A stretch of 64,000 nt of DNA from an uncultured Actinomycetes bacterium (GTDB lineage Bacteria; Actinomycetota; UBA4738; HRBIN12): assembly GCA_964567675.1 (NCBI GenBank), contig CAZMNP010000074.1, positions 2,923-66,922 of the forward strand. Direction: 5' to 3'. The translations under genes and the position numbers were made by a program. The notes beneath the pieces were generated by a model that was not told the DNA's origin, did no database searches, and was given only the letters and a program-made list of their open reading frames with translations. This document shows positions 30,544-49,561 of this stretch, piece after piece; within the stretch, counting starts at the first letter, position 1; the number at the start of each line of letters is the position of its first letter.

Positions 30544-31110
30544 TCAGTCCTCCCGGTCGAGAACGCGCCGCATCTTGCGCATCGCGGCGAGCGTTCGGGT
30601 CTTCACCGTTCCCACCGGGATGCCGAGTGTTTCGGCGATCCGGGTCTGCGTGTAGCCGCCGAAGTATGCCAGCTCGATCACCTGCCGCTGCTCCGGGGGG
30701 AGGATCGTGAGGGCCTCACGGACCTCCCTGCGACGGACGCTCAGGTACGCGCCGTCGACGACCTCGTCCGCAACATCTTCGCCACGAATGGGCTCCAGGT
30801 TCGAGGCCCGCTCGGTTCTCCTGCGGAGGCGTTCCTCGCGCCGGACCACGTCCACCGCGCGGTGATGGACCAACGACAAGAAGAAGGAGCGGAACGCGCC
30901 CCGGGCAGGGTCGAAGGCCTCCGGCGCCTTCCACAGCGCGAGGAAGGCGTCCTGGACGACCTCCTGGGCGAGGGCTTCCTGGGCGGTGATCCGAAGCGCG
31001 AGGCCGTAGGCCGACGAGCCGTACCGGCGGTAGATCTCGTCGAAGGCTTCGCGGTCGCCGTGCCTGACCCGGCGGTGGAGGTCGAGATCGTGGATCTCTC
31101 CCTCGCTCAT
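30544..31110 (-). CDS. ECF (sigma-70 family) RNA polymerase sigma factor
   Basis: The sigma-2 region (VQDAFLALWK) and the sigma-4 HTH (YFGGYTQTRIAETLGIPVGTVKTR) are present. Confidence 0.85.
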   Translation of the reverse strand: MSEGEIHDLDLHRRVRHGDREAFDEIYRRYGSSAYGLALRITAQEALAQEVVQDAFLALWKAPEAFDPARGAFRSFFLSLVHHRAVDVVRREERLRRRTERASNLEPIRGEDVADEVVDGAYLSVRRREVREALTILPPEQRQVIELAYFGGYTQTRIAETLGIPVGTVKTRTLAAMRKMRRVLDRED

Positions 31111-31435: not shown

Positions 31436-32125
31436 ATGCACTATCATCCGGCCGTGAGCCAGCGGCCGATCCCCGAGGCCACCGTCGGGCGACTCCCCAT
31501 CTACCTTCGGGCGCTCGTCGAGATCGCCGAGAACGGCTCGACCACCGTGTCGTCCGAGGCGCTCGCGGCGGCCTCGGGCGTGAACTCGGCGAAGGTCCGC
31601 AAGGACCTCTCGCACCTCGGCTCGTACGGGACTCGGGGGGTCGGCTACGACGTCGCGTACCTGATCCATCAGATCCGGCGCGAGCTCGGCCTGACGCAGC
31701 ACTGGCCCATCGTGATCGCCGGGATCGGGAACCTCGGGCACGCACTCGCCAACTACCGGGGCTTCGCCGAGCGAGGCTTCCGAACGGCGGCGCTCGTCGA
31801 CAACGACCCGGGCAAGATCGGGGAGGACGTCGCAGGCCTCGCGATCCGTCCGCTGGAGGACCTGCGCGCGATCGCGCGGGAGCACGAGACGCTGATCGGC
31901 GTCATCTCGACGCCGGCCGTCGCCGCCCAGCAGGTCGCCGACGCCATGGTGGAAGCCGGGATCCGATCGATCTTGAACTTCGCGCCGGCGGCGCTCGCGG
32001 TCCCCGAGGGCGTCTCGGTGCGGAAGGTGGACCTGGCCGTCGAGCTCCAGATCCTCACGTACTACGAGCAGCGCAATGCCGCGCTCGTGGACGTGAAGCG
32101 GCGGGGCCGAGCCCAGACCGCCTGA
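31436..32125 (+). CDS. rex: redox-sensing transcriptional repressor Rex
   Basis: The protein has an N-terminal wHTH (RLPIYLRAL..) and a Rossmann NADH domain (IVIAGIGNLGHALANY). Confidence 0.85.
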   Translation: MHYHPAVSQRPIPEATVGRLPIYLRALVEIAENGSTTVSSEALAAASGVNSAKVRKDLSHLGSYGTRGVGYDVAYLIHQIRRELGLTQHWPIVIAGIGNLGHALANYRGFAERGFRTAALVDNDPGKIGEDVAGLAIRPLEDLRAIAREHETLIGVISTPAVAAQQVADAMVEAGIRSILNFAPAALAVPEGVSVRKVDLAVELQILTYYEQRNAALVDVKRRGRAQTA

Positions 32126-32138: not shown

Positions 32139-32252
32139 CTACTTGGCGATCGTGATCCACATGACGACGAAGATCACCAGGACCATGACGCCGAACAGGA
32201 TGAACTGCACCGAACCCTGTTCCATCAGCGGTGCCGCTTCCTGAGCGAGCAT
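32139..32252 (-). CDS. 37-aa single-TM small membrane protein
   Basis: The protein reads MLAQEAAPLMEQGSVQFILFGVMVLVIFVVMWITIAK. A GAGGAG RBS lies 6 nt upstream of the ATG. It sits 24 nt downstream of the last gene of the bc-complex operon. An alternative 28-aa start is at 32225. Confidence 0.35.
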   Translation of the reverse strand: MLAQEAAPLMEQGSVQFILFGVMVLVIFVVMWITIAK

Positions 32253-32275
32253 CTCGATCTCCTCGTGGTCGCGTT

Positions 32276-32947
32276 CTAGGCCGGTCCGTACCACGGCGGG
32301 GCCGTCCCGCCGGTCAGGATGTCCTTGCGCTTGCGCTCGGCGATGTCGAGCAGAGGCAGATGGACCGCCAGCCCGAACACCGAGCCGATCAGGAACATCC
32401 AGGAGTAGCGGTTCACGCTGCCGGAGTCGTGCCGCATGTACAGCTTGAGGAGCGGCCCACCGCCCGTGAAATACCCCTCCGCGGCGGCGAGCGACACGTC
32501 CTCGTCGGTCGCGAACTGGACGTTCTCGACGACGAAGTCCGTCGTTTGGAGGGCCAGGGGATCGTGTTCGGCGAGCCCAAGGTCCTCGTTCGCTCGCTCG
32601 GCGAGGAGCGCCTGCGCCGAGGACGTCACCGCCTGGATCGACGAGGTGTCGTTGTCGTTCTCGCCGGGCTCACGCCAGCCCTCCCCGTCGGGGTAGCGGT
32701 CGAACACCTCGTAGACGGGCTCCGGATCGGTGCCCGCCGCCTCGATGACCCAGGCCGGCTCGGCCCCGCGGGGGCCGAGGTTCACGGGCGTCTGGATCCC
32801 CTGGGAGTAGAACCCGAACGTCCAGATCGCCGAGAGCAGGATCATCCAGCCGAAGAAGGAGACGGCGAGGACGAGGTACCCCATCCGACGGCCGAAAACG
32901 AACGAGAGCATTAGCAGCACGCTGCCGACGAACAGGACGAACGCCAT
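32276..32947 (-). CDS. membrane protein, possible accessory subunit of the cytochrome bc complex
   Basis: I chose the ATG at 32947 (MAFVLFVGSVLLMLSFVFGRRMGYLVLAVSFFGWMILLSAIW..). It has two N-terminal TM helices, an acidic soluble domain and a C-terminal TM helix. It is the last long gene in the operon, after cytochrome c. Confidence 0.5.
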   Translation of the reverse strand: MAFVLFVGSVLLMLSFVFGRRMGYLVLAVSFFGWMILLSAIWTFGFYSQGIQTPVNLGPRGAEPAWVIEAAGTDPEPVYEVFDRYPDGEGWREPGENDNDTSSIQAVTSSAQALLAERANEDLGLAEHDPLALQTTDFVVENVQFATDEDVSLAAAEGYFTGGGPLLKLYMRHDSGSVNRYSWMFLIGSVFGLAVHLPLLDIAERKRKDILTGGTAPPWYGPA

Positions 32948-33015
32948 GATCGTGGTGAGCCCGCCCTTGAGCAGGGTCTCGCAGGGGATCTCGAATCCGA
33001 CGCATGACTGGGCGA

Positions 33016-33756
33016 TCACAGTTCCACGTTGTCCGTCGGGTTGGGCTTGTCCGTGATGACGCCGTTCAGGTAGTCCTCGACGGCCTTCGTCTGCGCTTCC
33101 GGGTTCAGGCAGACGTTCTCGCCGAAGGGGACCTCGTCCTCGTTCTGGATGCTGACGAGGTAGGTCACGATGTCGTTGATCTGCTGGTCGTTGAGGGCGC
33201 CCTCGAACCGGATGCTCCAGGACGGCATGATCCCCCGGCCCTGTTCGATGGTGGTGTAGATGTCCTTCAGGCTGTAGATCAGCGGGTGCCCGTGGAACGG
33301 GCCGCCGCAGACGGTCGTCAGGTTCGGCGTGATGATCGGCGTCAGGGTGGTGGGATTCAGGATGCGGCCGCCCTCGAGCGTCGGGCCGTGGCACTGCACG
33401 CATCCGACACCGCCCTGGTTCTCCTCGGTGAACAGCTCGACCGCCAGGCTGCCGCGGTGGATCGCGTCCGTCTTGAGGTCGCGTTCCTGCGCGAGGTTCG
33501 TGCCGGGCTCGAGGAGCCACGTCGCGGGGACCCACACGACCAAGAAGACGACGAGCAGGACGCCCCAGCCCTGCAGCTTCTGGAGCAGCGGCGTCTCGAG
33601 GTCCTCGTCCGAAGGTCCGGGGCGCATGCCCTGGGGGATGTCGGGTGCGGCCGCGCGGCGGCGGCCGCGGAGGAACAGGACGCTCCCGGCGATCGCGAGG
33701 AAGACCGCCCCTCCGATCGCGAGGATGATGCCCTGTGCCTGCGTGAGGGCGAGCAT
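33016..33756 (-). CDS. membrane-anchored monoheme cytochrome c
   Basis: There is a single CxxCH (GVGCVQCH), a Met ligand region (GIMPSW) and two N-terminal TM helices. Confidence 0.8.
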   Translation of the reverse strand: MLALTQAQGIILAIGGAVFLAIAGSVLFLRGRRRAAAPDIPQGMRPGPSDEDLETPLLQKLQGWGVLLVVFLVVWVPATWLLEPGTNLAQERDLKTDAIHRGSLAVELFTEENQGGVGCVQCHGPTLEGGRILNPTTLTPIITPNLTTVCGGPFHGHPLIYSLKDIYTTIEQGRGIMPSWSIRFEGALNDQQINDIVTYLVSIQNEDEVPFGENVCLNPEAQTKAVEDYLNGVITDKPNPTDNVEL

Positions 33757-33775
33757 CAGATCGCGAGCACTTCTC

Positions 33776-34510
33776 TCATCCCGTCGCCACGCAGAACGGC
33801 CCCGATTGTGGCCGGCGAAGGGTGTCCGCGCCCCGCGGCGGGCCGAGGATCACCTCGGCCGTGTCAACGAGGACGTCACCCGTTTCGGAGACGGAGACAC
33901 GGAACCGGTCCATGCCTCGCGGCGCGGGGCCGAGCTTGTACTCGCCCGCGGTGTTGTACTTCGATCCGTGACAGGGGCATTCGAACCACTGCGACTGCTG
34001 GCAGAAGGGGACCCGGCACCCCAGATGCACGCACCGCTGGTACAGGGGCATGATCCCTTGCGCGGAGAGGCCCTCGGCTTCGTAGTCGATGTCGTCCGAT
34101 GGCCGGCCGTTATACGCGATGATGTAGAACCGGCCGGTCCCCGAGTACACCGGTTGCTCCGTCTCGCTGATCGCGGCCTTGATCTCCTCCACCTTCCCCG
34201 CGTTGATCAGGGAACCGAAACCGCCCTTCAGGTTCGGCCAGAGGAAGGCGAGGGTCGCGCCTCCGAACTGCGCGCCGTAGACGAGGAGCGATCCCACGAG
34301 CGACCGGCGGAAGAACTCGCGCCGGCTGACCGGCTTCGCGGTCTTCGGCGGCGGTTGGCCGAATGCGTGGGCGGTCTCTCGAGCCTCCGCCTCTCGCTGC
34401 TCGCGCCGCGCTCGCCGGAACGAGAGACCGAAGACGATCGCGAACAGGTCCAGGACGACGATCACGACGATCGCCGCGATCGTGCCGCTCGACAGGGCCA
34501 GGACCGGCAT
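33776..34510 (-). CDS. Rieske [2Fe-2S] iron-sulfur subunit
   Basis: The Rieske boxes are present (CVHLGC and CPCHGS). I chose the ATG at 34510, which overlaps the upstream stop (ATGA). The listed ORF extends into junk. Confidence 0.85.
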
Positions 34511-35427
34511 CACAGCTCGAAGAACACCCCTTGTGCCCACGGCCAGACCCAGTTGTAGCCGGTGCCGCGGAAGAAGGACCCGATGATCGTCAGGGTCGCG
34601 CCGAACATCATCAGCATGGTGAACATGGTCATCGCGAGCTTTCGGTCGCCCGGCTTCGTGCTCGGGTTCCGGTCGACGAACGGGACGACGGCGAGCGCGA
34701 GCAGGACGATCGTCGGTGCGAAGAGCACCCCGGCCACCATCGGGTGGAAGTAGCGAAGGAGCTCCTGAAGGCCGAGGAAGTACCAAGGAGCCTTCGAGGG
34801 GTTCGGTGTCAGGTTCGGGTTCGCCAGCTCGCGGAGCGGCGCGTTCACGAACGTCGAGAAGATCACGAGGCCCACGGTCACGATGAGCATCGCGACGAAC
34901 TCCTCGATCAGCAGGTGCGGCCACACGTTCACGCGGTCGCCCTGTTCGCGTTCGACGCGCTGGATGCCCTCAGGCGGAACGAGCGCGAGGAGCCGGTGCT
35001 TTTCCTCGACCCCTTTCTTCGGCTCCGGCACGTTCCCCGTCGGCGCCGGAGCCTGCCGCGCCGGCGCCAACGTCGTCCCCGCCGGTGCGGCAACCGCCGC
35101 GGCTACCGGCGCCGGTGTGGCCGCAGGCGCCGGAGCGGCCGCAGGTGCAGGAGCGGAGGTCGCGGCCGGCGCCGGGGGCTGTGCGGCGCCCGAAGCCGCT
35201 CCGCCGTCTCCCGCCGTCGCCGCACCCTCCCCCGGCGTGGCCGCGGCCGGAGCGGGGGCGGCGGCCGGAGCAGCCGCCGGAGCTTCACCGTGCGCAGCCC
35301 GGTACGCCTGCACCGCCGCCCGCCGCGCGCGACCCTCCGCCACGCGGCGGTCGGTGCCCTTCGCGAGCTCCTCGGCCAGGACCCTGTCGAAGGTCTCCTG
35401 GTCGAGTTGCGCTTCCTCGCGAGCCAA
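34510..35427 (-). CDS. cytochrome b C-terminal half (subunit-IV/PetD-like) with ~150-aa Ala/Pro-rich N-terminal extension
   Basis: The C-terminal 150 aa resemble PetD ([23 protein letters not shown]). The N-terminal 150 aa are a low-complexity A/P tract. A TTG start is preceded by a GAGGAGGAA RBS. Confidence 0.7.
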
Positions 35428-35451
35428 CGTTCCTCCTCTTCGAGCGGTCCC

Positions 35452-36222
35452 TTACAGCGGCCCCGAGATCCCGCCGTCCTTGCGGATCCTCCAGAAGTGC
35501 ACGGAGAGGAATATCACCAGGACGAACGGCAACGCGAGAACGTGGAGCGTGTACCAACGAAGCAACGTGTCCGGGCCGACCACCACCCCGCCGAGCAGAA
35601 GGAAGTTCGCCTGTTTCGCGATGAGGGGGGAGTACCCGGCGAGCGACGTGCCGACCGTGACGGCCCAGATCGCGAGCTGGTCCCACGGCAGCAGGTACCC
35701 GGTGAACGAGAGTCCGAGCGTGAGGAACAGCAGGACCACGCCGACCACCCAGTTGAACTCACGCGGCGGCTTGTACGAGCCGGTGTAGAAGACCCGCGCC
35801 ATGTGGAGCGTGACGCTGAAGACCATGAGGTGAGCGCCCCACCGGTGCAGGTTGCGGACGAGGTCGCCGAAGAACACCGAGGTCCGGATGTTCTGCATGT
35901 CGGTGTAGGCCGAGGCCGCGCCGAGCTCGGCGGCCGGGCGGTAGAAGAACATCAAGAAGATGCCCGTGACGGTGAGCAGGATGAACAGGAAGAACGACAG
36001 GCCGCCCAGGCAGAACGTATAGGTCAGCTTCAGTCCGTGCCGCTTCAGCTTCACGGGGTGCAGGTGGTACAGCACGTTGTTCATCGTCGCGAGCGCCCGG
36101 TCGCGCGAGGTGTCCTTGTAGCCTCTTCGGAAGATCGAGCCGGGCCGGAACATCGACTTCCAGACCTCGGAGTCGCGGACGCGATCCATCACCTCGCTCG
36201 GCGAGGGCGGTTTGAGCTTCAC
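35452..36222 (-). CDS. cytochrome b6-type (N-terminal half of cytochrome b)
   Basis: Four TM helices with the heme-ligand His residues are present ([16 protein letters not shown] ... [24 protein letters not shown]). A GTG start with a GGAAGGA RBS is used. An internal ATG at 36189 is an alternative start. Confidence 0.85.
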
Positions 36223-36241
36223 CCCGTCCTTCCCCCTCGTC

Positions 36242-36640
36242 CTAGCCTTCGTCGGCCCGCTGCGTCTCGGGAACCGAGGCCATCGTGCGGCGGCCGCCCG
36301 AGCCTTCGGGCAGCCGGGCGTAGTACAGCGTGTCGGTGGGGCATCGCTCCACGCAAACGGAGCAGCGGGTGCAGGCGTTGTCGTCGACCACGAAGACCGA
36401 GTAGGACTCGGAGATCTCGGCCTCGACGGCCTCCTCTGTCGCGTCCCGCACGATCGTGGGGGCCATCATGAAGATGCAGTTCCACGGGCAGACGTCCTCG
36501 CACGCCCGGCACAGGATGCAGTTATCGGGATCGAGCATCAGGTGCTTGGGCGAGCGGACGCCCTTCGCGAGCCACGACGGGTCGACGGGCTCCACGACGT
36601 AGTCCGTGTGGATGTCGACCTCGGTCTTCGTGAACGGCAC
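36242..36640 (-). CDS. 2x[4Fe-4S] ferredoxin-type protein
   Basis: Two CxxCxxCxxxCP motifs are present ([12 protein letters not shown] and [12 protein letters not shown]). A GTG start is preceded by a GGAAGG RBS. Confidence 0.75.
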
Positions 36641-36663
36641 GGGCGGACCTTCCTATCCGTTCC

Positions 36664-37026
36664 TCATCGATAGCCGCCGGTCGGGCGCTCGGCCGAGGCC
36701 CCACGGAGCTTCCGCCGCCAGTTCTGAACGATCACGCCGGCGACGACCACCGTGAAGAAGGGTCCCGTCGAGAGCCCCGCGGCGACGGCGTCGCGCGCGA
36801 GCGGCCGCCAGTCCGACGTCCCTGACAGGCCGTCCCAACCCAGCTTCTGCTCGGCGAAGTACAACCAGAACGAGGGGATGACCGCCATCGAGATGACGCT
36901 GAAGAAGGCAAGTCCCAGGGAGAACGCAACTGCGGTGGTCCAGGACCACTCGAAATCCCTGAGGAAACGCTCGGCTCGCTCCTTCTGCTTGGCGTACTGC
37001 CGAAGGAGCCTCTCCGGGACCTTCAT
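36664..37026 (-). CDS. small membrane protein (120 aa)
   Basis: I chose the ATG at 37026 (MKVPERLLRQYAKQKERAERFLRDFEWSW..). Two TM helices are predicted. It is the first gene of the minus-strand operon. Confidence 0.45.
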   Translation of the reverse strand: MKVPERLLRQYAKQKERAERFLRDFEWSWTTAVAFSLGLAFFSVISMAVIPSFWLYFAEQKLGWDGLSGTSDWRPLARDAVAAGLSTGPFFTVVVAGVIVQNWRRKLRGASAERPTGGYR

Positions 37027-37243
37027 CCGACAGCCATCCCCACGCGGATCGCGCTTCCCCCGATCGTCGGTCGCCCTCGCGGCCGGCTGATTATAGACAT
37101 CGGCCCTTCCGCCACCCGGCGATGCGCCGGCCCCGCGGTGTCGCTGCCACCGCTCGTGAAAAGCTTCACAAGCACGCCTCACTATGGCAAGGATCGGCCG
37201 AGAGGTGCAACCGCATCCCCCCGGGATCGCACCTCACCCGGCG

Positions 37244-38005
37244 ATGCGCATCCCTTCCTACACTGGCCGCGTGATCGCCGACTTCGTGCAGGAGGGCCTC
37301 GGAGCCTGGTGGGCGCCCGCGCTCGCTTTCGCCGCCGGCCTGGTCTCGTTCGCCTCCCCTTGTGTGTTCCCGCTCGTGCCGGGCTATCTGTCCTTCGTCA
37401 CGGGCGAGGCGCGCGACGAACGGCGGCCGGTCGTGCCGATCCTGCTGTTCATCGCGGGTTTCGCCGCCGTGTTCACGGCCCTCGGGGCGTTCACGGGATC
37501 GGTGACCCGGATCCTGCGCTCGCCTGCGGGCATCCGGATCTCGGGCGGGATCATCATCGCGTTCGGAGTCCTGATGGTGCTGTATGCCCTGCGCGTCGGG
37601 TCGCCGGCGCTGTTCGCGGAACGCCGCCCGCTGCTCCAGCGGGTCCGGCCCGGACCGGCGTGGGCCTTCCCGCTCGGCGTCGCGTTCGGCGCCGGGTGGA
37701 CGCCGTGCATCGGACCGGTGCTCGCGGGTGTGCTCGGCATCGCGGCTGCCCAGGGGGGGTCGTTCCGCGGTGCGGTGCTCCTGTTCGTGTACTCGGCCGG
37801 GTTGGGGCTCCCGTTCCTGTTGGTCGGCGTGGGCGTGCGGCGACTCATGGGGGCGCTCGCGTTCGTCCGGCGCAACTACCACTGGATCGCGGGCGGCTCG
37901 GGCGTGGTCATGATCGCGATCGGAGTGCTCGTCGCGACGAACCAGTGGACGCTGCTGCTCGGGCCAGTCCTTCGCGCGATCCGGCAATTCGAGCCTCCGC
38001 TCTGA
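37244..38005 (+). CDS. ccdA: cytochrome c biogenesis protein CcdA (DsbD family)
   Basis: The CxxC motif lies in TM1 (SFASPCVFPLVPGY). Six TM helices are predicted. I chose the ATG at 37244. Confidence 0.8.
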   Translation: MRIPSYTGRVIADFVQEGLGAWWAPALAFAAGLVSFASPCVFPLVPGYLSFVTGEARDERRPVVPILLFIAGFAAVFTALGAFTGSVTRILRSPAGIRISGGIIIAFGVLMVLYALRVGSPALFAERRPLLQRVRPGPAWAFPLGVAFGAGWTPCIGPVLAGVLGIAAAQGGSFRGAVLLFVYSAGLGLPFLLVGVGVRRLMGALAFVRRNYHWIAGGSGVVMIAIGVLVATNQWTLLLGPVLRAIRQFEPPL

Positions 38006-38048
38006 GCGTGTCGGTCCGCTCCAGCGCCGAGCGTGGGTACTTTCAAGG

Positions 38049-39218
38049 ATGCTAGAGTGCGCCGGGTTCGGTGCCCGCCGAACGTCCGCGCGAGGGGAAA
38101 CGGGGAAGGTGCGCAGGAAGACGCAGTCGGCCCTCGGCCTAATTACCCTGGTCGCCGTCGCTGCCGCATGCGCTCCGAACGCCACGCAGTCTGCGCTCGA
38201 ACCCGCTGGACCGTACGCCGAGAAGGGCTACGACCTGTTCGTCCCGGTCTTCTGGGTTGCCGCGGCTGTCTTCTTCATCGTCGAGGGCGCCCTCGTGCTT
38301 TTCGTGATCCGCTACCGGCATCGCAAGGGCCGCGAGGGCATCCCGCCGCAGGTCCACGGCAACACGCGTCTTGAGATCGCGTGGACGATCCTTCCGGCCG
38401 TGATCCTCGCGGGCGTCTCGGTGCCGACCGTCGCGGGGATCTTCGAGCTCGCCCGGGACCCCGGGCCCCAGGCACTCGCCGTGCGGGTCCTCGGGCACCA
38501 GTGGTGGTGGGAGTTCGACTATCCCGAACAGCGGATCATCACGGCGAACGAGCTGCACATCCCCACCGGCCGGCCCGTCTATCTCACGTTGTGCGCGGTC
38601 GGCGTCGGGTACGGCGGCGTGCCGACCCCCAGCGAGTGCCAGCCCGGGCCTCCGGAGGGCGCCCCGCCGGCAACGCTCGGCGACGCGGTGATCCACTCCT
38701 TCTGGCCGCCCGAGCTTGCCGGAACCCAGGACGTGATCCCGGGGCGGGCGAACACCATGGTGCTCCAGGCCGACGAGCCGGGTACCTACGAGGGCCAGTG
38801 CAAGGAGTTCTGCGGCCTCTCGCATGCGTACATGCGATTCACGGTCGTCGCCCACACGCCGCAGGACTTCGAACGATGGGTGGCCGATCAACAGGCGCCC
38901 GCGCCGCAGTTCGAACCGGGCAGCGCCGCCGCGGCAGGGGCGGAGACGTTCATCCAAACGTGCGTTGCCTGTCACTCGGTCGACGGCCTGCAGGATGCGG
39001 AGGGAGTGCTCATCCCGGGGTCGAACAACGCCCCGAACCTCACGCACTTCGCGAGCAGCGAGTGCTTCGCCGGCTGCATCTTCGAGAACGACGACGAGAA
39101 TCTGCGACGATGGCTCAACGATCCTCCGGCGATGAAACCCGGATCGTTGATGCCGAACTACGGCTTGACGCCCGAGCAGATCGAACAGCTGATCGCGTAC
39201 CTGAGCACGCTGGAGTGA
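38049..39218 (+). CDS. ctaC: cytochrome c oxidase subunit II fused to a C-terminal cytochrome c domain (caa3-type)
   Basis: The CuA site is present (HSFWPPELAG...CKEFCGLSHAYM), with a C-terminal CVACH heme c motif. A lipoprotein-like signal is present (LVAVAAACAP). The start is uncertain between the ATG at 38049 and the GTG at 38111. Confidence 0.85.
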   Translation: MLECAGFGARRTSARGETGKVRRKTQSALGLITLVAVAAACAPNATQSALEPAGPYAEKGYDLFVPVFWVAAAVFFIVEGALVLFVIRYRHRKGREGIPPQVHGNTRLEIAWTILPAVILAGVSVPTVAGIFELARDPGPQALAVRVLGHQWWWEFDYPEQRIITANELHIPTGRPVYLTLCAVGVGYGGVPTPSECQPGPPEGAPPATLGDAVIHSFWPPELAGTQDVIPGRANTMVLQADEPGTYEGQCKEFCGLSHAYMRFTVVAHTPQDFERWVADQQAPAPQFEPGSAAAAGAETFIQTCVACHSVDGLQDAEGVLIPGSNNAPNLTHFASSECFAGCIFENDDENLRRWLNDPPAMKPGSLMPNYGLTPEQIEQLIAYLSTLE

Positions 39219-39233
39219 GGTGAAGAAGGAGCG

Positions 39234-41114
39234 ATGGCGAGCGTGAGCGTCCCGGCCGAGCGGCCTCGCGGCCTATTGAGCCGGCCCACCGCGACGACGG
39301 GATTCTGGAGCTGGTTCACGACGGTGGACCACAAGAAGATCGGGATCCTGTACGGCATCACGGCTTTCATGTTCTTCATCGTCGGTGGGATCGAGGCCCT
39401 GCTGATCCGGCTCCAGCTCGCAGGGCCCGACCAGGACATCCTGTCGGCGAGCGTCTACAACGAGATCTTCACGATGCACGGCATCACGATGGTGTTCCTG
39501 GTGGTCATGCCGCTGTCGGCCGCGTTCTTCAACTACCTGATCCCTCTGATGATCGGAGCCCGCGACGTCGCGTTCCCGCGGCTGAACGCGTACAGCTACT
39601 GGGCGTTCCTGTTCGGCGGGCTGTTCATCTACTCGAGCTGGTTCCTCGGCGGCGCTCCGAACGGCGGGTGGTTCGGTTACCCGCCGAACTCGAGTCTCGA
39701 CCCGACGCTCGGGATGACCTTCTACTCGCTCGGGTTGCTGATCACCGGCATCGCGTCCACGGTCTCCGCGGTCAACCTCGCCGTCACGATCATCAACATG
39801 CGCGCGCCGGGGATGACGCTGTTCCGGATGCCCGTCTTCATCTGGATGGGCTTGGTCGTCCAGCTGCTCCTGGCCTTCTCGCTGCCGATCATCACGATCG
39901 GGCTGACCGAGTTGTTCTTCGATCGCCGATTCGGGACCCACTTCTTCGATCCGGCAGCGGGCGGCGACCCGGTGCTGTGGCAGCACCTGTTCTGGCTGTT
40001 CGGGCACCCCGAGGTGTACATCCTGGTCCTGCCGGCGATGGGGATCGTGTCGGAGATCCTGCCGGTCTTCGCTCGCAAGCCGCTGTTCGGCTACCAGTTC
40101 GTGGTCTTCAGCGGCATGGCGATCGGGTTCATCGGCTTCGGCGTCTGGGCGCACCACATGTTCGCCGTGGGGCTCGGGCCGGTCGCCAACACCGCGTTCG
40201 GCATCTCCACGATGATCATCGCGGTCCCGACGGGCGTGAAGATCTTCAACTGGCTCGGGACGCTCTGGAGGGGCGACATCCGGTTCACGACGCCGATGCT
40301 GTTCTCGATTGGATTCATCGCGATGTTCGTGATCGGCGGGCTCTCGGGAGTCACGCACGCGGTCGTGCCGTCGGACTACCAGCAGACGGACACGTATTAC
40401 ATCGTCGCGCACTTCCATTACGTGCTGTTCGGCGGCGCGATCTTCGGGCTTTTCGGCGGCATCTACTACTGGTGGCCGAAGGTCTTCGGCCGGATGCTGG
40501 GTGAGGGGCTCGGCAAGCTGAACTTCTGGCTCATGCTGATCGGGTTCAACCTGGCCTTTGGGCCGATGCACATCCTCGGTCTCCAGGGGATGCCGAGACG
40601 GATCCAGAGCTATCCCGAGTCGCTCGGCCTCACCTTCTGGAACCTCGTGTCGTCGGTCGGCGCGTTCCTGATCGCGGTCGGCGTGCTGATCTTCCTCGTG
40701 AACGCCGTGGCGAGCTTCCGCAAGCCGAAGGAGATGGAGGCCGATCCGTGGGACGCGCGGACCCTCGAGTGGCTCACGACGTCGCCGCCTCCCGAGTACA
40801 ACTTCGACGAGGTGCCCGTCGTCCACTCCCTCGACGAGCTGTGGCATCGGAAGTACTCGCAGACGCAGGGCGGCCGCGTCGTGCCCGTTCCGGCGGGCGG
40901 CTCCGGCGAGGCGCACGGCGACCCGCACGGCGGTGGACACGGGAGTGGACACGGGATCCACCTACCGGGCCCGTCCTACTTCCCGCTGATCGCGGCGCTC
41001 GGTCTGCCGATCGCGGCCTACGGGCTCATCTTCAACTGGTGGCTCGTCGGCGCCGGGATCGTCCTGGTGCTTGCCGGGTTCTACGGCTGGATCCTGGAAC
41101 CCTCGGCGGAGTGA
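39234..41114 (+). CDS. ctaD: cytochrome c oxidase subunit I with C-terminal extra TM helix
   Basis: The protein has the canonical CoxI helices and His ligands (WFFGHPEVY, HHMF). An AAGGAG RBS precedes the ATG. A C-terminal Gly/His-rich loop is followed by an additional TM helix. Confidence 0.9.
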   Translation: MASVSVPAERPRGLLSRPTATTGFWSWFTTVDHKKIGILYGITAFMFFIVGGIEALLIRLQLAGPDQDILSASVYNEIFTMHGITMVFLVVMPLSAAFFNYLIPLMIGARDVAFPRLNAYSYWAFLFGGLFIYSSWFLGGAPNGGWFGYPPNSSLDPTLGMTFYSLGLLITGIASTVSAVNLAVTIINMRAPGMTLFRMPVFIWMGLVVQLLLAFSLPIITIGLTELFFDRRFGTHFFDPAAGGDPVLWQHLFWLFGHPEVYILVLPAMGIVSEILPVFARKPLFGYQFVVFSGMAIGFIGFGVWAHHMFAVGLGPVANTAFGISTMIIAVPTGVKIFNWLGTLWRGDIRFTTPMLFSIGFIAMFVIGGLSGVTHAVVPSDYQQTDTYYIVAHFHYVLFGGAIFGLFGGIYYWWPKVFGRMLGEGLGKLNFWLMLIGFNLAFGPMHILGLQGMPRRIQSYPESLGLTFWNLVSSVGAFLIAVGVLIFLVNAVASFRKPKEMEADPWDARTLEWLTTSPPPEYNFDEVPVVHSLDELWHRKYSQTQGGRVVPVPAGGSGEAHGDPHGGGHGSGHGIHLPGPSYFPLIAALGLPIAAYGLIFNWWLVGAGIVLVLAGFYGWILEPSAE

Positions 41115-41121
41115 TGTCCTG

Positions 41122-41745
41122 ATGGCGAGCGACGCGATGGAGGTCCATGCCTACGAGAGCGAGCACCTGGCGACGAGCACGGGCTTGCCGAACCTCAAGC
41201 TCGCGATGTGGCTCTTCCTCGCCTCGGACTGCCTGCTGTTCGGGGCGCTGATCTCGACGTACGTGCTCTACCGGGGTGCGAGCGTGGTCGGGCCCTATCC
41301 GAACGACGTCTTCGACATCCCGTACACGTCGGTCTCCTCCTTCGTGCTCCTCGCGAGCTCGCTCACGATGGTGCTCGCCCTCGCGGCGCTGCAGCGCGGC
41401 GACCTCGGCCGGTCGCGGGTATGGCTGCTCGCGACGGCGTTGCTGGGTATGACGTTCGTCGGCGGCCAGGTCTACGAGTTCACGACGTTCGCCGAGGAGG
41501 GACTCGTGCTCACGACGAACGTCTTCAGCACGAGCTTCTACGTGCTGACCGGGTTCCACGGGACGCACGTCGCGATCGGGATCTTGATGCTGTTGACGCT
41601 CCTCACGTTCTCGTTCGCCGGCCGGCTCGGGCCTGAGAAGGCGGAGACCGTCGAGCTCGTGGGCCTGTACTGGCACTTCGTCGACATCGTGTGGATCGTG
41701 ATCTTCACCGTCGTCTATCTGATCCCCACGGGGAACCCGGCATGA
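41122..41745 (+). CDS. ctaE: cytochrome c oxidase subunit III
   Basis: The protein matches the CoxIII family (LTGFHGTHVAIG, WHFVDIVW). I chose the ATG at 41122. Confidence 0.85.
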   Translation: MASDAMEVHAYESEHLATSTGLPNLKLAMWLFLASDCLLFGALISTYVLYRGASVVGPYPNDVFDIPYTSVSSFVLLASSLTMVLALAALQRGDLGRSRVWLLATALLGMTFVGGQVYEFTTFAEEGLVLTTNVFSTSFYVLTGFHGTHVAIGILMLLTLLTFSFAGRLGPEKAETVELVGLYWHFVDIVWIVIFTVVYLIPTGNPA

Positions 41746-42101
41746 GCGAGGCGGAGCGCTCGACCGAGCTCGCCCCGCAGGCCGAGGCCACGACGGGATC
41801 GCACCAGGGGTCCGGTCACGTCGCGCGCCACCCGAGCCCGAAGGAGTACGTCCGGATCGCGATCATCCTCGCGATCATCACCGCGGCCGAGGTCGCCATC
41901 TACTACATCGAGGCGATCGAGGGCCTGCTGATCCCACTCCTGTTCCTGTTCGCGCTGATCAAGTTCACGCTCGTCGTGCTCTGGTTCATGCACCTCAAGT
42001 TCGACAGCCGGACCTACGCGCGGTTCTTCATGATGGGCCTCGCGGGTGCGATCACCCTGTTCCTCATCGTGCTGCTCACGTTCCGGGTCTTCGTGGGGTA
42101 G
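41742..42101 (+). CDS. ctaF: cytochrome c oxidase subunit IV (prokaryotic caa3 type)
   Basis: The PF03626-like pattern is present (HPSPKEYVRIAIILAIITAAEVAIYY). The ATG overlaps the ctaE stop (ATGA). Confidence 0.7.
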   Translation: MSEAERSTELAPQAEATTGSHQGSGHVARHPSPKEYVRIAIILAIITAAEVAIYYIEAIEGLLIPLLFLFALIKFTLVVLWFMHLKFDSRTYARFFMMGLAGAITLFLIVLLTFRVFVG

Positions 42102-42104
42102 CCG

Positions 42105-42935
42105 ATGCCCACCTGGCACGCTCATCCCGACGTCTGGCTCCTCCTCGGAGGGGTGTGGGTGGCGTATCTCCTCGCCGTTCGCCGGCACCGATCGACGGCG
42201 CCGGAGGCCGGCCGAAGCGAGCGCCGGAAGCGCACGACGCTGTTCACCTTCGGGATGGGGCTGCTGTGGTTCGCCTCGGAATGGCCGATGCACGACCTGG
42301 CCGAGGGATACCTGTACTCGGCGCACATGGTCCAGCACATGGTCTACACGCTGGTCGCCGCGCCGCTGCTCGTGGCGGGGATCCCGGCCTGGATGTGGCG
42401 CGCGATCCTGCGGCCGCGGCCCCTCGGGCGCCTCTTCGGGTTCGCGACCCGGCCCGTCGTTGCACTGATCATCTTCAACGGAGTGCTCCTGTTCACGCAC
42501 TGGCCCGAGGTGGTCGAGGCATCCGTGGGGTCGGAGCTGCTCCATCTCTCGCTGCACGTGCTGATCGTTTGCTCGGCCGTCGTGATGTGGTGGCCGGTCA
42601 TGTCACCGCTCCCGGAGCGTCCGGCCCTCCCGCCGCCGGGGCAGCTGATGTACCTGTTCCTCCAGTCGCTCGCGCCGACGATCCCGGCGTCGTTCCTCAC
42701 GTTCGGGACGACGCTGCTGTACCCGGTGTACGGAACGTTCCCCCGGATCTGGGGGATCCCGGCGATCACCGACCAGCTGGTCGCCGGCCTGATCATGAAG
42801 ATCGGCGGCGGGTTGATCCTGTGGGGCTTCATCGTGGTCATCTTCTTCAACTGGCATGCGAAGGAGCGGGACGGGTGGGACGCCCTCGCGCTCCGCGGGG
42901 TCGAGCGGGACGTCCGGGCGGGGCTCGCGAAGTGA
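42105..42935 (+). CDS. ctaG: cytochrome c oxidase assembly factor CtaG (Caa3_CtaG family)
   Basis: A multi-TM protein with the conserved HMVQHMV motif. Confidence 0.7.
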   Translation: MPTWHAHPDVWLLLGGVWVAYLLAVRRHRSTAPEAGRSERRKRTTLFTFGMGLLWFASEWPMHDLAEGYLYSAHMVQHMVYTLVAAPLLVAGIPAWMWRAILRPRPLGRLFGFATRPVVALIIFNGVLLFTHWPEVVEASVGSELLHLSLHVLIVCSAVVMWWPVMSPLPERPALPPPGQLMYLFLQSLAPTIPASFLTFGTTLLYPVYGTFPRIWGIPAITDQLVAGLIMKIGGGLILWGFIVVIFFNWHAKERDGWDALALRGVERDVRAGLAK

Positions 42936-42964
42936 GGCCGAGATGAGGCCAAGGTGAGGTCAAG

Positions 42965-43957
42965 GTGAAGAAGGACGTCCGCGACCGGCTGCTCCTTCCG
43001 CTCCTGCTGCCGGTCGGCATCCTCCTGTTCATCGCGCTGATGCTCTGGGGGTTCTCGAGGATCCTGCTCGGTCTCACCGCGACGACCGCGACGGTCACAG
43101 CCGTCGTCGCGGCGCTCGGCGTCATGGTGATCGCCGCCATCGCGGCCGGCCGGACGACGGTCCGCGCCTCCACGATCGCCGCGATGTTCGCCGCCACGGC
43201 GGGCATCGCGATGCTGGCCGGCGGGATCGCCCTCGCCTTCGTCGCCGGCGGGGATGAGGGCGAAGAGCCGGGTCCGCCCGACGAGGGTGTCCCCGTCGTC
43301 GAGCTCGTCGCCCAGGACATCGCCTTCAACCCGACCGACCTGACGGTGCCGGCCGACGTGCCGTTCGAGATCGCGTTCGACAACCGCGACGCCGGGGTGC
43401 AGCACAACGTCTCGATCTACGACAACCCGGAGTTCAGCGGTACGCCGCTGCTCGAAGGCGAGCTCGTGACCGGTCCGACGCAGACGACCTATCGCGTCGA
43501 CCCCTTGTCGCCGGGTCCGTATTCGTTCCTGTGCGTCGTGCACCCCACGATGACCGGACAGATCGAAGCCGTCGAGGGCGAGGGTCCCGGAGGCGGTGAC
43601 GAGGAACCGGGAGGCGAGGAACCGGGAGGCGAGGAACCGGGCGGCGAGGAACCGGGCGGCGGTGAGGAGCCGGGAGACGGCCTCACGGTGGTGGCGCAGA
43701 ACCTCGCGTTCGACACGCAGACCCTCGACCTGCCGCCCGAGGCGGTCGCGACGATCACGTTCGACAACCGGGACGCGGGAACGCCGCACAACATCTCGAT
43801 CTACTCCGACGAAAGCCTCGGTGAGCTCCTCTTCCAAGGCGAGCTCGTCACGGGTCCCGCCACGATCCCGTATGAGGTCGGGCCGTTCCCGGCGGGCGAG
43901 TACTACTTCCATTGCGACGTGCACCCCAACATGAACGGGACGGTGAGGGTCGGCTGA
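42965..43957 (+). CDS. membrane-anchored tandem-cupredoxin protein (two type-1 copper sites)
   Basis: Two N-terminal TM helices are followed by two cupredoxin domains, each with H...C..H...M ligands (HNVSIY...FLCVVHPTMTG and HNISIY...YFHCDVHPNMNG). A (GEEPG)n linker joins them. A GTG start is preceded by an AAGGTGAGG RBS. Confidence 0.7.
   Translation: MKKDVRDRLLLPLLLPVGILLFIALMLWGFSRILLGLTATTATVTAVVAALGVMVIAAIAAGRTTVRASTIAAMFAATAGIAMLAGGIALAFVAGGDEGEEPGPPDEGVPVVELVAQDIAFNPTDLTVPADVPFEIAFDNRDAGVQHNVSIYDNPEFSGTPLLEGELVTGPTQTTYRVDPLSPGPYSFLCVVHPTMTGQIEAVEGEGPGGGDEEPGGEEPGGEEPGGEEPGGGEEPGDGLTVVAQNLAFDTQTLDLPPEAVATITFDNRDAGTPHNISIYSDESLGELLFQGELVTGPATIPYEVGPFPAGEYYFHCDVHPNMNGTVRVG
43601..43660 (+). 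repeat. 15-bp tandem coding repeat x4 (gaggaaccgggaggc), encoding a (EEPGG)n linker
   Basis: The direct tandem repeat can be read in the DNA inside the cupredoxin gene. Confidence 0.8.
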
Positions 43958-43994
43958 CGGCCCCGCTCACCGCCGGCAGCGAGTGGATGTCGTG

Positions 43995-44492
43995 ATGAAA
44001 CGCGTGGCCGTGCTCCTGCTGTTGACGGCGTGTGCTTCTCCCGCGGTGGTTCCCGGCGCGGCGGTGCAGGAGGTCTCCGGCAGGATGCCCGCGCTCGAGG
44101 GTGCCGCCCTCGCCGGTGGGACGCTGACGTCCTCGGACTACGCGGGGCGCGTCGTGGTCGTGAACTTCTGGGCCACGTCGTGCGCTCCCTGCAGAGACGA
44201 GCAGCCGATCCTGTCCGCCGCGCAGTCGCGAGCCGGCGACGACGGCCCGTTCTTCATCGGCGTCAACCATCGGGAGGGCGAGGACGCGGCTCGGGCGTAC
44301 CTGGATGAGTTCGATGTGCGGTACCCCAGCCTCGGGGATCAGGCGGGCGACATCGCATACCGGTTCGGTGTGCCGTTCCTGCCGACCACGGTCGTGATCG
44401 ACGCCGACGGCCGGCTCCGCTACCGGATCGCCGGGGCGATCGACGAAGAGACGCTCGCCGACCTGCTCTCGAGGGTGACCGCCGGCGAGTGA
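43995..44492 (+). CDS. TlpA/ResA-like thiol-disulfide oxidoreductase lipoprotein
   Basis: A lipobox is present (LLLTACAS), with a thioredoxin CxxC (WATSCAPC). I chose the ATG at 43995. Confidence 0.75.
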   Translation: MKRVAVLLLLTACASPAVVPGAAVQEVSGRMPALEGAALAGGTLTSSDYAGRVVVVNFWATSCAPCRDEQPILSAAQSRAGDDGPFFIGVNHREGEDAARAYLDEFDVRYPSLGDQAGDIAYRFGVPFLPTTVVIDADGRLRYRIAGAIDEETLADLLSRVTAGE

Positions 44493-47728: not shown

Positions 47729-47796
47729 CGGTCCGGCTCCGCCGTCCGCCGCCCCGAGGCCCGGTTTGAACCGGTCTACGCGGCGCGACTAGGGTT

Positions 47797-47812
47797 TGTG
47801 ACGCGTTTCACA
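47797..47812. promoter_or_regulatory. perfect CRP/GlxR-type palindrome TGTGA-CGCGTT-TCACA
   Basis: The site can be read directly in a locally AT-rich patch. Confidence 0.5.
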
Positions 47813-47828
47813 AGTCGTTAGCATCCTT

Positions 47829-47844
47829 TGTGAATTTTTTCACA
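47829..47844. promoter_or_regulatory. perfect CRP/GlxR-type palindrome TGTGA-ATTTTT-TCACA
   Basis: The site can be read directly. Its centre is 32 bp from the first site. It lies 20 nt upstream of the GTG at 47864. Confidence 0.5.
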
Positions 47845-47863
47845 AGCGGTGGGGGGAGATCCG

Positions 47864-49114
47864 GTGTCGAGCCCGAGCGCGCACATCGAGACCGATGTCC
47901 TGATCGTCGGCGCCGGCCCCGGCGGCTCGACGGCCGCGTACCACCTCGCGCGGCACGGCATCGACGTCACCCTGATGGACAAGGCGTCGTTCCCCCGCGA
48001 GAAGGTCTGCGGCGACGGGCTCCCGCCGCGCGCGGTCGTCGCCGTGCAGCGCATGGGGATCGACACCGACGATCCCCGGTTCGAGCGACACGGCGGACTT
48101 CGGATCTACTCGCGCAAGACGATGCTCGAGCTCCCCTGGCCGGCGCTCGAGGACTTCCCCGCATCCGGCCTGACCATGACCCGGTACGGCTTCGACGAGA
48201 TCCTCGTCCGCCAGGCCGAGAAGGCAGGCGCCGGACTCCGGGAAAGGATGGAGGCGATCTCCCCGGCCATCGACAACGGCTGGGTGACGGGCGCGAGGGT
48301 GCGCGACCTCGAGCGGGACGAGGAGGTGGACGTCCGGGCCCGCTTCGTGATCGCGGCCGACGGCGCCGCATCGCGGTTCGCAGCCCAGGCGGGGGTCCGG
48401 CGGGACCCGACGAAGCCGCTCGGCATCGCCGCGCGCCGCTACTACCGGATCGACCGGCATCCCGGCCCATGGCTCGAGGTGTGGATGGACCTGTGGGAGG
48501 GCGACGAGATCATGCCCGGCTACGGATGGCTGTTCGCTCTCCCCGACGGCTCGGTGAACCTTGGCGCCGGCGTCCTCAACACGTTCAAGAGCTTCAAGGA
48601 CGTCTCTGCCCCGCGGGTGTTCGAGGCGTTCGCGAAGATGTTGCCCGAGGAATGGGGTGTCAGCGAGGAGACCGCCGAAGGACGGGCGCTCTCCGGTCCG
48701 TTGCCGATGGGAGGGTCCCGGGTCCCCACCGCGGTCCCGGGGATGTTGGTCGTCGGGGACGCCGCCGGGCTCGTGAATCCCTTCAACGGCGAGGGGATCG
48801 CGTACGCGATGGAAACGGGTGAGCTCGCGGCCGAGCTCATCCACGAGGCCCTCGTGCGCGACCGGCCGGGCATCGCGCAGCTGTATCCGGCCATCCTTCG
48901 CGAGCGGTACGCACGGTACTTCCGCGTCGGGAACAACTTCGTGCGGGCCATCGGCCACCCGGCCGTGATGCGGACGCTGACCGAGTACGGGCTGCCCCAG
49001 GAGTGGCTCATGCGGTTCGCCCTGCGGGTGATGGGGAACCTGACCGACGGGCGGAAGGGCGACTTCCAGGACAAGCTGATGAACGCGATCGTCCGGCTCG
49101 CGAGGGCCGCTTAG
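47864..49114 (+). CDS. geranylgeranyl-reductase-family FAD-dependent oxidoreductase (possible menaquinone reductase)
   Basis: An FAD site is present ([15 protein letters not shown]), with the GGR family C-terminus. The GTG at 47864 has a GGGGGAGA RBS. The GTG at 47849 is an alternative start. Confidence 0.75.
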
Positions 49115-49123: not shown

Positions 49124-49561
49124 ATGGAGCTCGCCGAGTACCTGCCGATCGTGATCTTGGCGACGCTCGCGCTCGCGTTCGCCGTGTTTTCCCTGTCGGC
49201 GTCGGCTCTGCTCCGTCCCCACAAGCCGACGCCGGCCAAGCTCGCGCCGTACGAGTGCGGCATCGTCCCCGAACGACTGCCGAAGGGAGAGCGGTTCAGC
49301 GTCAAGTTCTACGTCGTCGCGATGCTGTTCATCATCTTCGACATCGAGACGATCTTCCTGTTCCCCTGGGCCGTCGGGTTCCGCCAGCTCGGCCTGTTCG
49401 GGCTCGTCGAGATGGCCGTGTTCATCGCGCTCGTCTTCGTCGCCTACGTCTATGTCTGGAAGAAGGGCGGTCTGGACTGGCAGCGCGACGAGCGGCGCCG
49501 GGCGGGAGCAGCGGTGGATACGGCTCGAGCCGACGCGCGGGAGCTGACCCATGCCGGTTGA
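49124..49561 (+). CDS. nuoA: NADH-quinone oxidoreductase subunit A, with ~25-aa C-terminal extension
   Basis: The NuoA core is present (YECGIVPE...[15 protein letters not shown]). An AGGAGG RBS precedes the ATG. Confidence 0.85.

Follow-up and report, generated by a model that had tools for sequence, protein, structure and literature searches.

Split cytochromes b whose Qo site carries an APWY motif form a clade present in several phyla. This clade includes Rubrobacter, Conexibacter, Patulibacter and Ilumatobacter, is linked to mid- or high-potential Rieske signatures and has no characterised member (Kao and Hunte 2014, PMC4122944). The same work describes a PDWF-FeS branch, in which cytochromes b are fused to 4Fe-4S domains and lack a Rieske partner. 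Short cytochromes b were also reported in Rubrobacter and Conexibacter, but with TLGS replacing the CxGG motif, which is defined by a cysteine that binds heme ci (Dibrova et al. 2017, PMC5600118). Apart from the system presented below, the only Rieske/cytochrome b complexes proposed to have a cytoplasmic iron-sulfur (Fe-S) module are those of anammox bacteria, hosts that are hard to grow and to manipulate genetically. In Kuenenia stuttgartiensis, this module is a cytoplasmic nicotinamide adenine dinucleotide (phosphate), or NAD(P), reductase with a chain of [4Fe-4S] clusters, proposed to bifurcate quinol electrons to NAD(P)+ from the bH/ci end of the complex (PMC12954380). Here we describe an operon of an uncultured soil Actinomycetes bacterium, found on the minus strand at positions 32139-37026 of a 64,000-nt stretch of DNA (GCA_964567675.1, contig CAZMNP010000074.1, 2,923-66,922 of the forward strand), hereafter called the window. 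It codes for a split cytochrome b, a Rieske protein and a cytochrome c, together with a ferredoxin-like protein and three membrane proteins, A, G and H.

We propose, with a probability of roughly 55%, that this operon encodes the main complex III of its lineage, a b6c-type enzyme of the APWY clade that is controlled by Rex and passes electrons to a caa3 oxidase, with an Fe-S protein similar to NuoI located at, or dedicated to, its cytoplasmic face and with A, G and H as supernumerary subunits. Four extra products that are always co-encoded, the ferredoxin, A, G and H, distinguish it from any bc1, bcc, b6f or b6c complex that has been characterised.

Because the G+C content of the window is about 69%, raw lists of open reading frames (ORFs) were noisy, and genes were picked using a third-position GC filter and inspection of start codons. 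All eight reading frames that a first-pass annotation of the sequence had assigned to the operon were recovered at the same positions. In order of transcription, they code for A (36664-37026, 120 aa, two transmembrane (TM) helices), a 2x[4Fe-4S] ferredoxin-like protein (36242-36640, 132 aa, GTG start), cytochrome b6 (35452-36222, 256 aa), subunit IV (34510-35427, 305 aa, TTG start), the Rieske protein (33776-34510, 244 aa), cytochrome c (33016-33756, 246 aa, one CVQCH motif), G (32276-33019, 247 aa, three TM helices, GTG start at 33019) and H (32139-32252, 37 aa, one TM helix). These co-directional genes are closely packed, with gaps of 19-24 nt or otherwise overlaps of 1-4 nt. The identities proposed for the five recognizable products were borne out by profile searches with Pfam and NCBIfam, with Pfam matches to Fer4 (3.9e-13), Cytochrome_B (4.6e-42), Cytochrom_B_C (1.7e-9), Rieske (9.3e-8) and Cytochrom_C, respectively. 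Consensus scans of the operon revealed neither internal terminator-like sites nor promoters above chance.

In order to assess the conservation of the locus, we scanned one genome per GTDB species, which yielded 196 genomes with a relative of G, and we fetched the best 80 of these 196 loci. They all come from metagenome-assembled genomes of uncultured Actinomycetota, two of which have evidently loose labels. One locus (L042, JBHGAT010000115.1) is labelled 'Candidatus Velamenicoccus archaeovorus' and another (L040) 'Solirubrobacterales bacterium'; both harbour the same operon, with 62-64% identity for G, and the former label is probably a binning or labelling artefact. Synteny was analysed using tblastn with twelve proteins of the window against the fetched loci. 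In every locus with enough flanking sequence, the genes for CoxI, CoxII, (ResB/CcsA) and CcdA are found on one side of the operon and that for Rex on the other, with the operon itself in the order A-ferredoxin-b6-subunit IV-Rieske-cytochrome c-G-H. This order is identical in all 42 loci that extend from ccdA to gene A, 34 of which contain all 12 genes tested, and such an arrangement is far beyond chance. The ferredoxin and the membrane proteins always co-occur with the bc genes, and none of them belongs to a characterised unrelated family, which would have undermined the initial proposal of an atypical complex.

Mean identities over the 34 complete loci are highest for b6 (91.5%), followed by CoxI (80.5%), the ferredoxin (80.4%), subunit IV (79%), Rex (78%), CcdA and the Rieske protein (71% each), H (69%), cytochrome c (65%), G (64.5%), A (63%) and CoxII (59%). 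The ferredoxin is thus the second most conserved product of the operon, after b6.

The first-pass annotation had proposed that cytochrome b is split into b6 and a PetD-like subunit IV rather than being a long QcrB, and this is well supported. In comparisons with PDB sequences, b6 is closest to chloroplast and cyanobacterial b6 of the b6f complexes (157 bits), ahead of proteobacterial cytochrome b (109) and actinobacterial QcrB (85). NCBIfam scores for the Qcr families are far below their cut-offs, with 112.4 for QcrB (cut-off 500), 31.9 for QcrA (275) and 17.4 for QcrC (200). The heme ligands of b6 are His126/His140 and His227/His242, with spacings of 13 for the helix B pair and 14 for the helix D pair, the latter being of the b6 type. 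The heme-ci motif FC71LGG is unchanged in 42 of the 45 sequences scored, and its CLGG core is kept in two more (TFCLGGIS and TYCLGGTS); the remaining hit is a spurious regular-expression match at the C-terminus. CLGG was also found by direct reading in the b6 proteins of three diverged loci, L089, L091 and L093 (see below). Cys71 of this CxGG motif is therefore the predicted attachment site of heme ci. The C-terminus of b6 is GGISGPL in 44 of 47 scored homologues and GGISGPM in two more. Cyanobacterial b6 proteins end with the same GGISGPL motif.

Subunit IV has its own ORF 24 nt from that of b6, with a GGAGG sequence six bases ahead of its TTG start codon. It is predicted to have three TM helices, to end after the third of them, and to harbour the Qo motif APWY rather than PEWY, with KAPWYF present in 65 of 65 relatives scored. 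Its N-terminal region consists of a conserved helix of about 45 residues, a variable Ala/Pro-rich linker (residues ~50-125) and a conserved segment (125-165). The linker varies both in length and in sequence, whereas the flanking segments 1-45 and 125-165 are conserved. This tethered-helix design is common to all four lineages that we compared. The conservation of the split in every relative, the C-terminal motif of b6, and the ribosome-binding site and conserved N-terminus of subunit IV all argue that the split is genuine. The possibility of a single, frameshifted qcrB could therefore be discarded, since the ORFs are separate in all relatives. By its sequence, the cytochrome b of this operon is of a split, b6 type and not a long actinobacterial QcrB.

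In addition, b6 has a basic, conserved N-terminal extension of about 28 residues, and its predicted cytoplasm-facing residues 19-66 are conserved. This region contains conserved His53, His55 and His62, present in all the diverged lineages. Of note, the Kuenenia complexes were modelled with AlphaFold3, and in these models an additional heme b, located at the dimer interface, is bound by one N-terminal His (His62 or His43) from the cytochrome b of either monomer (PMC12954380). Pfam scans of the b6 extension, of the N-terminal helix of subunit IV and of the soluble domain of G yielded no match.

In the Rieske protein, the twin-arginine motif SRREFF stands between an additional TM helix at the N-terminus and a second one, which is followed by the cluster-binding domain with the boxes CVHLGC and CPCHGSKY. 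Box I is found in 76 of 76 relatives, and box II conforms to CPCHGS[K/R/N]Y in 77 of 77, which corresponds to the Ser/Tyr signature of high-potential centres. According to the APWY study, this signature denotes Rieske centres with potentials higher than about 260 mV and accompanies the APWY clade (PMC4122944). Among PDB sequences, those of the two Kuenenia proteins, Kuste4569 and Kustd1480 (9rk4 and 9rk3), are nearest, with a small lead over PetC (E of 4e-14 vs 2e-11). The potentials measured for the Kuenenia Rieske proteins are +303 and +335 mV (PMC12954380).

Cytochrome c is a class I, monoheme protein with a single CVQCH motif and two N-terminal TM helices that would serve as a membrane anchor; no relative was found among PDB sequences. 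In three diverged lineages, its counterpart is a diheme protein (L089, 8960-9979; L091, 8126-9001; L093, 8140-8988), vs a monoheme protein in the window lineage, in which caa3 has a cytochrome c domain fused to CoxII. The difference points to the loss or relocation of one heme domain.

We then considered the ferredoxin-like protein. It contains two CxxCxxCxxxCP motifs separated by about 38 residues, a layout similar to that of NuoI, and these motifs are invariant in 44 of 44 sequences scored. Its N- and C-terminal tails, outside the clusters, are almost invariant as well. As it has neither a TM helix nor a signal peptide or twin-arginine motif, it is predicted to be cytoplasmic; its net charge is about -11. 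Its best NCBIfam match is NuoI (TIGR01971), at 40.7 bits for a cut-off of 113, and matches among PDB sequences include the polyferredoxin FwdF, NuoI/TYKY and PsaC. The alignment with NuoI of the same genome is collinear, including the long insert between the motifs, with 26% identity, which argues for a NuoI-like fold in a protein distinct from NuoI. That it is the NuoI subunit of this organism was rejected, given the sub-cut-off score and the presence of a genuine NuoI (ORF 56561-57886) in a separate nuo operon. Cys55 was considered as a potential ninth ligand and dismissed, as it is replaced by Ala in L093, and thus the eight cysteines of the motifs most probably bind the two clusters.

Proteins A, G and H match no Pfam or NCBIfam family; their membrane topologies were predicted using the positive-inside rule. 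The two TM helices of A are flanked by basic N- and C-termini predicted to be cytoplasmic, and the protein ends with a conserved GGYR sequence, which is GGYR or GGYK in the A-like proteins of the diverged groups. The first-pass annotation described the product of gene G as a 224-aa membrane protein with an acidic domain. Both the membrane location and the acidic domain hold, but the protein is most likely 247 residues long with three TM helices. Its GTG start codon at 33019 overlaps the stop codon of the cytochrome c gene, and homologues in databases are all 247-248 residues long, with a partly conserved extra N-terminus. The acidic alpha/beta domain of about 135 residues between TM2 and TM3 is predicted to be outside, and the RKRK tail inside. 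An AlphaFold2 model of good quality (predicted local distance difference test, pLDDT, of 81) displays the three TM helices and the alpha/beta ectodomain, with no structural relative in the PDB. Invariant residues of G include Trp66, Trp90, His220 (in TM3) and Glu228. We found 1121 homologues of G in 5.8 billion clustered proteins, all without a name or labelled 'Actinomycetota bacterium', and 214 representative clusters among 1.84 billion proteins. H is a 37-residue peptide (MLAQEAAPLMEQGSVQFILFGVMVLVIFVVMWITIAK) with a single TM helix, and its N-terminus is predicted to be outside. That H is a real gene is supported by its presence in 79 related loci, where it takes the form of 65 distinct variants that differ by conservative substitutions.

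More distant homologues of G (25-35% identity) collected by an exhaustive search are coded by genes that follow those for a Rieske protein and a cytochrome c on short contigs. A search seeded with one of these distant homologues identified a group from Nitriliruptoria (Egibacteraceae, Nitriliruptorales). We analysed four long contigs with diverged loci, two from Nitriliruptoria (L089 and L090) and two from other metagenomic lineages (L091 and L093). Across these four loci in three groups, the core comprises genes for an A-like protein, the ferredoxin, b6, subunit IV, the Rieske protein, cytochrome c and a G-like protein. Identities to the window proteins are 50-55% for the ferredoxin, 74-80% for b6 and about 25-35% for G. 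In subunit IV, the diverged loci retain the N-terminal helix, the Ala/Pro-rich linker and APWY, and their Rieske proteins harbour CPCHGS.Y. The conservation of this module in diverged groups argues that the ferredoxin-b6c core is old and stable within Actinomycetota. The diverged loci are adjacent to cytochrome c biogenesis genes and not to caa3 genes, with additional Rex, hem and nuo genes in L091 and FixO/FixP-like genes upstream of the operon in L093. Adjacency to caa3 genes and a monoheme cytochrome c are thus confined to the window lineage. We also found in L093, about 6 kb downstream of the operon (15511-18711), genes for a 2-oxoacid:ferredoxin oxidoreductase (POR, PFOR_II) and for an Fe-S/pyridine-nucleotide oxidoreductase.

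In the mechanism that we favour, quinol would be oxidised at a Qo site formed by b6 and subunit IV. The first electron would pass from the Rieske protein, exported by the twin-arginine translocation (Tat) system, to the anchored monoheme cytochrome c and then to the cytochrome c domain of caa3. The second electron would cross the membrane through hemes bL and bH to covalently bound heme ci. A possible docking platform for the ferredoxin on the cytoplasmic face is suggested by its negative charge, by the conserved extensions that b6 and subunit IV have, and by the basic tails found in A and G; the ferredoxin may be held there by these tails together with the N-terminal extensions, also basic, of the two cytochrome b subunits. 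From this position, it could link hemes bH and ci with a redox partner in the cytoplasm. A, G and H might have a role similar to that of PetG/L/M/N of b6f. Expression of the operon would be tied to the NADH/NAD+ ratio through Rex. A respiratory supercomplex with caa3 is plausible, since both c-type domains are membrane-anchored. The sequences show which genes are present, their cofactor motifs, the predicted topologies, the strict co-conservation and the Rex operator; from these we infer that the ferredoxin, A, G and H are physically associated with the complex, and likewise the quinone species, the partner oxidase and the direction of electrons through the Fe-S clusters. A more specific version of this proposal, which we regard as tentative, is that the two-cluster protein is a subunit wired to bH/ci, through which electrons would pass, in either direction, between the quinone pool and cytoplasmic carriers of low potential.

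Several observations weigh against the assignment of these products to a complex III that feeds caa3. The presence of the ferredoxin, A, G and H genes in the operon would fit assembly factors or a soluble carrier equally well. Among the 120 homologues listed, all of them 131-143 residues long, the ferredoxin is never fused to b6 or subunit IV. The AlphaFold2 model of the ferredoxin is poor (pLDDT of 32), probably because the underlying alignment is too shallow (33 sequences, 77% mean column identity). The adjacency with caa3 is lineage-specific, being found in 42 of 42 window-lineage loci and replaced in the three diverged lineages. Finally, complexes of the APWY type may run in reverse, as suggested by Kao and Hunte (PMC4122944), which would change the direction of the proposed mechanism.

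Each of the two possible directions of electron flow through the ferredoxin makes a distinct hypothesis, and we consider each of them unlikely. In a bifurcation scheme, a high-potential Rieske centre would be combined with low-potential menaquinol, driving the chain of b hemes down to very low potentials, and electrons from bH/ci would reduce the two [4Fe-4S] clusters and then a cytoplasmic low-potential acceptor, instead of or besides quinone at Qi, such that the reduction of oxygen would pay for a low-potential reductant. The invariant high-potential signature of box II, present in 77 of 77 relatives and interpreted as in the APWY study (PMC4122944), agrees with this idea, as does the presence of the heme-ci motif. 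Actinomycetota generally use menaquinone, which is another point in its favour. The nearest solved Rieske proteins are moreover those of the Kuenenia complexes with a cytoplasmic Fe-S/flavin adenine dinucleotide (FAD) module, for which this mechanism was proposed (PMC12954380). However, the anammox mechanism is itself a proposal, the lead of the Kuenenia proteins over PetC is small, and subunit IV has three TM helices vs five in anammox bacteria. Furthermore, no FAD or NAD(P) domain is encoded in the operon, whose ferredoxin is only 132 residues long. In the opposite direction, the Fe-S protein would take low-potential electrons, for instance from 2-oxoacid:ferredoxin oxidoreductases, and deliver them via heme ci to quinone at Qi. 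The role of b6f as a ferredoxin-quinone reductase (FQR) by way of its extra c heme in cyclic electron flow is an open proposal (PMC7908018). The nearly invariant heme-ci cysteine, the predicted location of the Fe-S protein on the same, cytoplasmic side and the POR/PFOR-type genes about 6 kb downstream in L093 are consistent with such a reductase. Nevertheless, the POR neighbourhood was found in a single locus and might be coincidental, the operon of the window has genes for a complete complex I for NADH nearby, and the sequence sets no direction of electron flow.

It is similarly doubtful that the extra genes code for biogenesis or regulatory factors, in the manner of the CCB proteins for heme-ci attachment or of a redox-sensing Fe-S protein, with the mature enzyme being an ordinary four-subunit b6c complex. 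Because the heme-ci motif is conserved, some maturation system for this heme probably exists, and Pfam detects no CCB1-4 homologues among the operon products. In addition, the invariant residues of G include Trp and, in TM3, a His, features that are common in heme-handling proteins, and genes for cytochrome c biogenesis (ccdA, resB, ccsA, resA) are always adjacent. Conversely, assembly factors are seldom as conserved as catalytic subunits, and yet the ferredoxin matches CoxI in this respect. The soluble domain of G is predicted to be outside, the wrong side for heme-ci attachment, and H looks like a structural micro-subunit. The genes concerned also sit within the structural operon, where stop codons overlap start codons. 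We therefore retain as most probable a b6c-type complex III with the Fe-S protein at its cytoplasmic face.

Regulation by Rex is suggested by an operator, TCGTGAAAAGCTTCACAA (37154-37171), located between gene A and ccdA, with one mismatch to TTGTGAA-N4-TTCACAA. Five matches to the Rex operator were found in the window vs 0.24 expected by chance, and of 42 related loci, 40 have a site at this place between the two genes. The gene for the Rex repressor itself (31436-32125, plus strand, Put_DNA-bind_N and CoA_binding domains) is convergent with the operon and ends 13 nt from the end of H; its position is conserved in related loci. Two further operators in tandem (47796-47813 and 47828-47845, with one and zero mismatches, respectively) precede a gene for an FAD-dependent, geranylgeranyl-reductase-like protein (47849-49114), which is directly before nuoA (49124-49561). 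The nuo operon for complex I appears to be complete (49124-62255, plus strand), with NuoA, C, D, E, F, G, H, I, J, L and M identified, and it contains weaker Rex-like sites at 52108-52125 and 57992-58009. As Rex sites precede both the operon/ccdA and the nuo genes, the operon most likely belongs to a predicted Rex regulon together with complex I and the oxidase; complex I thus appears to be controlled by Rex as well, like the b6c and caa3 genes. Directly past Rex, a gene for an extracytoplasmic function (ECF) sigma factor is found on the minus strand (30544-31110). In L002, Rex is followed by a sigma/anti-sigma (RskA_C) pair, and in L085 an ECF-type sigma factor gene comes directly after the G-like gene.

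The divergent cluster on the plus strand (37184-44492) encodes CcdA, the caa3 oxidase (CoxII-cytochrome c, CoxI, CoxIII, CoxIV), CtaG, a two-domain cupredoxin and a thioredoxin-like protein, and the order ccdA-CoxII-CoxI is syntenic in 42 of 42 loci with enough flanking sequence. CoxI (39234-41114, plus strand) has C-terminal residues 577-622 that match Cyt_c_ox_IV (PF12270); a separate COX4_pro gene is found after that of CoxIII, and CoxI of L002 shows the same weak CoxIV match. The two-domain cupredoxin (42965-43957, plus strand, Cupredoxin_1 and plastocyanin/azurin-like domains) is encoded between CtaG and the thioredoxin-like protein and could be a copper chaperone or an electron carrier. 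The domain matches agree with the first-pass annotation that a caa3 oxidase and a di-cupredoxin are encoded next to the operon; the latter, which it also counted with the complex, is at most a candidate partner.

If the ferredoxin is physically associated with the complex, this would offer a simple system, possibly culturable in Nitriliruptoria, in which a link between ferredoxin, heme ci and quinone can be tested. The role of heme ci in b6-type complexes has been open since 2003, and so has the FQR route of cyclic flow (PMC7908018). Were the proposal to hold, this would be the first tractable model for the role of heme ci outside photosynthetic and anammox organisms, with either oxygen-pulled bifurcation in an aerobe or ferredoxin:quinone reduction as the possible directions. 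The ferredoxin-b6 pairing adjoins aerobic respiratory genes and is kept in the window lineage and in at least three diverged groups. The locus also ties three uncharacterised membrane-protein families, A, G and H, to complex III. It indicates as well that many soil Actinomycetota would not use the textbook QcrCAB, which is a target of anti-tubercular drugs.

Among known systems, the actinobacterial bcc complex QcrCAB (CIII2CIV2) shares with the window operon the phylum, an anchored cytochrome c that makes a soluble carrier unnecessary and additional N-terminal TM helices of the Rieske protein before the Tat motif. Its cytochrome c, QcrC, is diheme, as in the sister lineages of the window operon. 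In contrast with the latter, QcrB is long, unsplit and devoid of CxGG, and QcrA has three TM helices vs two for the Rieske protein described here, which is associated with a monoheme cytochrome c. The b6f complexes of cyanobacteria and chloroplasts have cytochrome f and a PEWY motif instead of class I cytochrome c and APWY, and searches with Pfam and NCBIfam detected no homology of H to the small Pet subunits. QcrABC of Bacillus and Geobacillus and the heliobacterial Rieske/cytochrome b complexes share the split cytochrome b, CxGG, respiration in Gram-positive bacteria and a caa3 oxidase with a fused cytochrome c. However, the Rieske gene comes first in the Bacillus operon, whereas b6 and subunit IV precede it here, and subunit IV is fused there to a cytochrome c that is the product of a separate gene, two positions downstream, in the window. 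In the window, APWY replaces the PDWY or PEWY of the Qo site, the Ser/Tyr signature is present in the Rieske protein, and the ferredoxin and three membrane proteins are additional. The score of b6 on the NCBIfam cytochrome b6 profile PRK03735 is 203 bits, for a cut-off of 325.

With Geobacter ExtOPQ (Cbc6), the relationship is closer for b6, which scores 289.6 bits on the cytb_ExtP profile (NF040969, cut-off 290), indicating that b6 and ExtP are close relatives. ExtQ (NF040970) gives 55.9 bits for a cut-off of 150, and the Rieske protein matches no Ext model. The Ext cluster includes multiheme cytochromes (ExtM and ExtN) and a porin and has no ferredoxin (PMC5877670), so a shared ferredoxin was discarded; the window operon is devoid of multiheme cytochromes. 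The Kuenenia systems (Kustd1480-1485 and Kuste4569-4574) share the b6-type core with heme ci, a high-potential Rieske protein and a [4Fe-4S] protein on the cytoplasmic side (PMC12954380). However, the latter is in Kuenenia a large, FAD-containing NAD(P) oxidoreductase that has about four clusters, rather than a two-cluster protein of 132 residues, and Pfam and NCBIfam searches revealed no flavin or NAD domain in any product of the window operon. Kuenenia subunit IV has five TM helices instead of three, and its cytochromes c are multiheme or octaheme proteins instead of monoheme ones (diheme in the sister lineages). Kuenenia is also an anaerobic member of Planctomycetota, unlike the present Actinomycetota, which encode a caa3 oxidase and complex I. 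As regards the ferredoxin, NuoI/TYKY and PsaC of photosystem I similarly have the two-[4Fe-4S] fold and are bound peripheral subunits on the membrane's negative side.

The closest description is that of the APWY clade, of which the window operon has both hallmarks, the APWY motif and a mid- or high-potential Rieske signature, an assignment made by motif. In its accessible part, that account (PMC4122944) deals with cytochrome b and Rieske sequences only and includes no ferredoxin, subunit IV extension or A, G and H families. We found no description of the co-encoded ferredoxin or of the A, G and H families in the literature, of which our coverage was incomplete. The first-pass annotation had called the complex undescribed. 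This was too broad for the split cytochrome b with APWY, since the APWY clade was described in Actinobacteria in 2014 (PMC4122944) and short cytochrome b again in 2017 (PMC5600118), and it holds for the ferredoxin, A, G and H in the literature that we found. The core enzyme class, the split gene and the APWY motif thus appear to be known already, and the new elements appear to be the invariant ferredoxin and the three orphan membrane-protein families.

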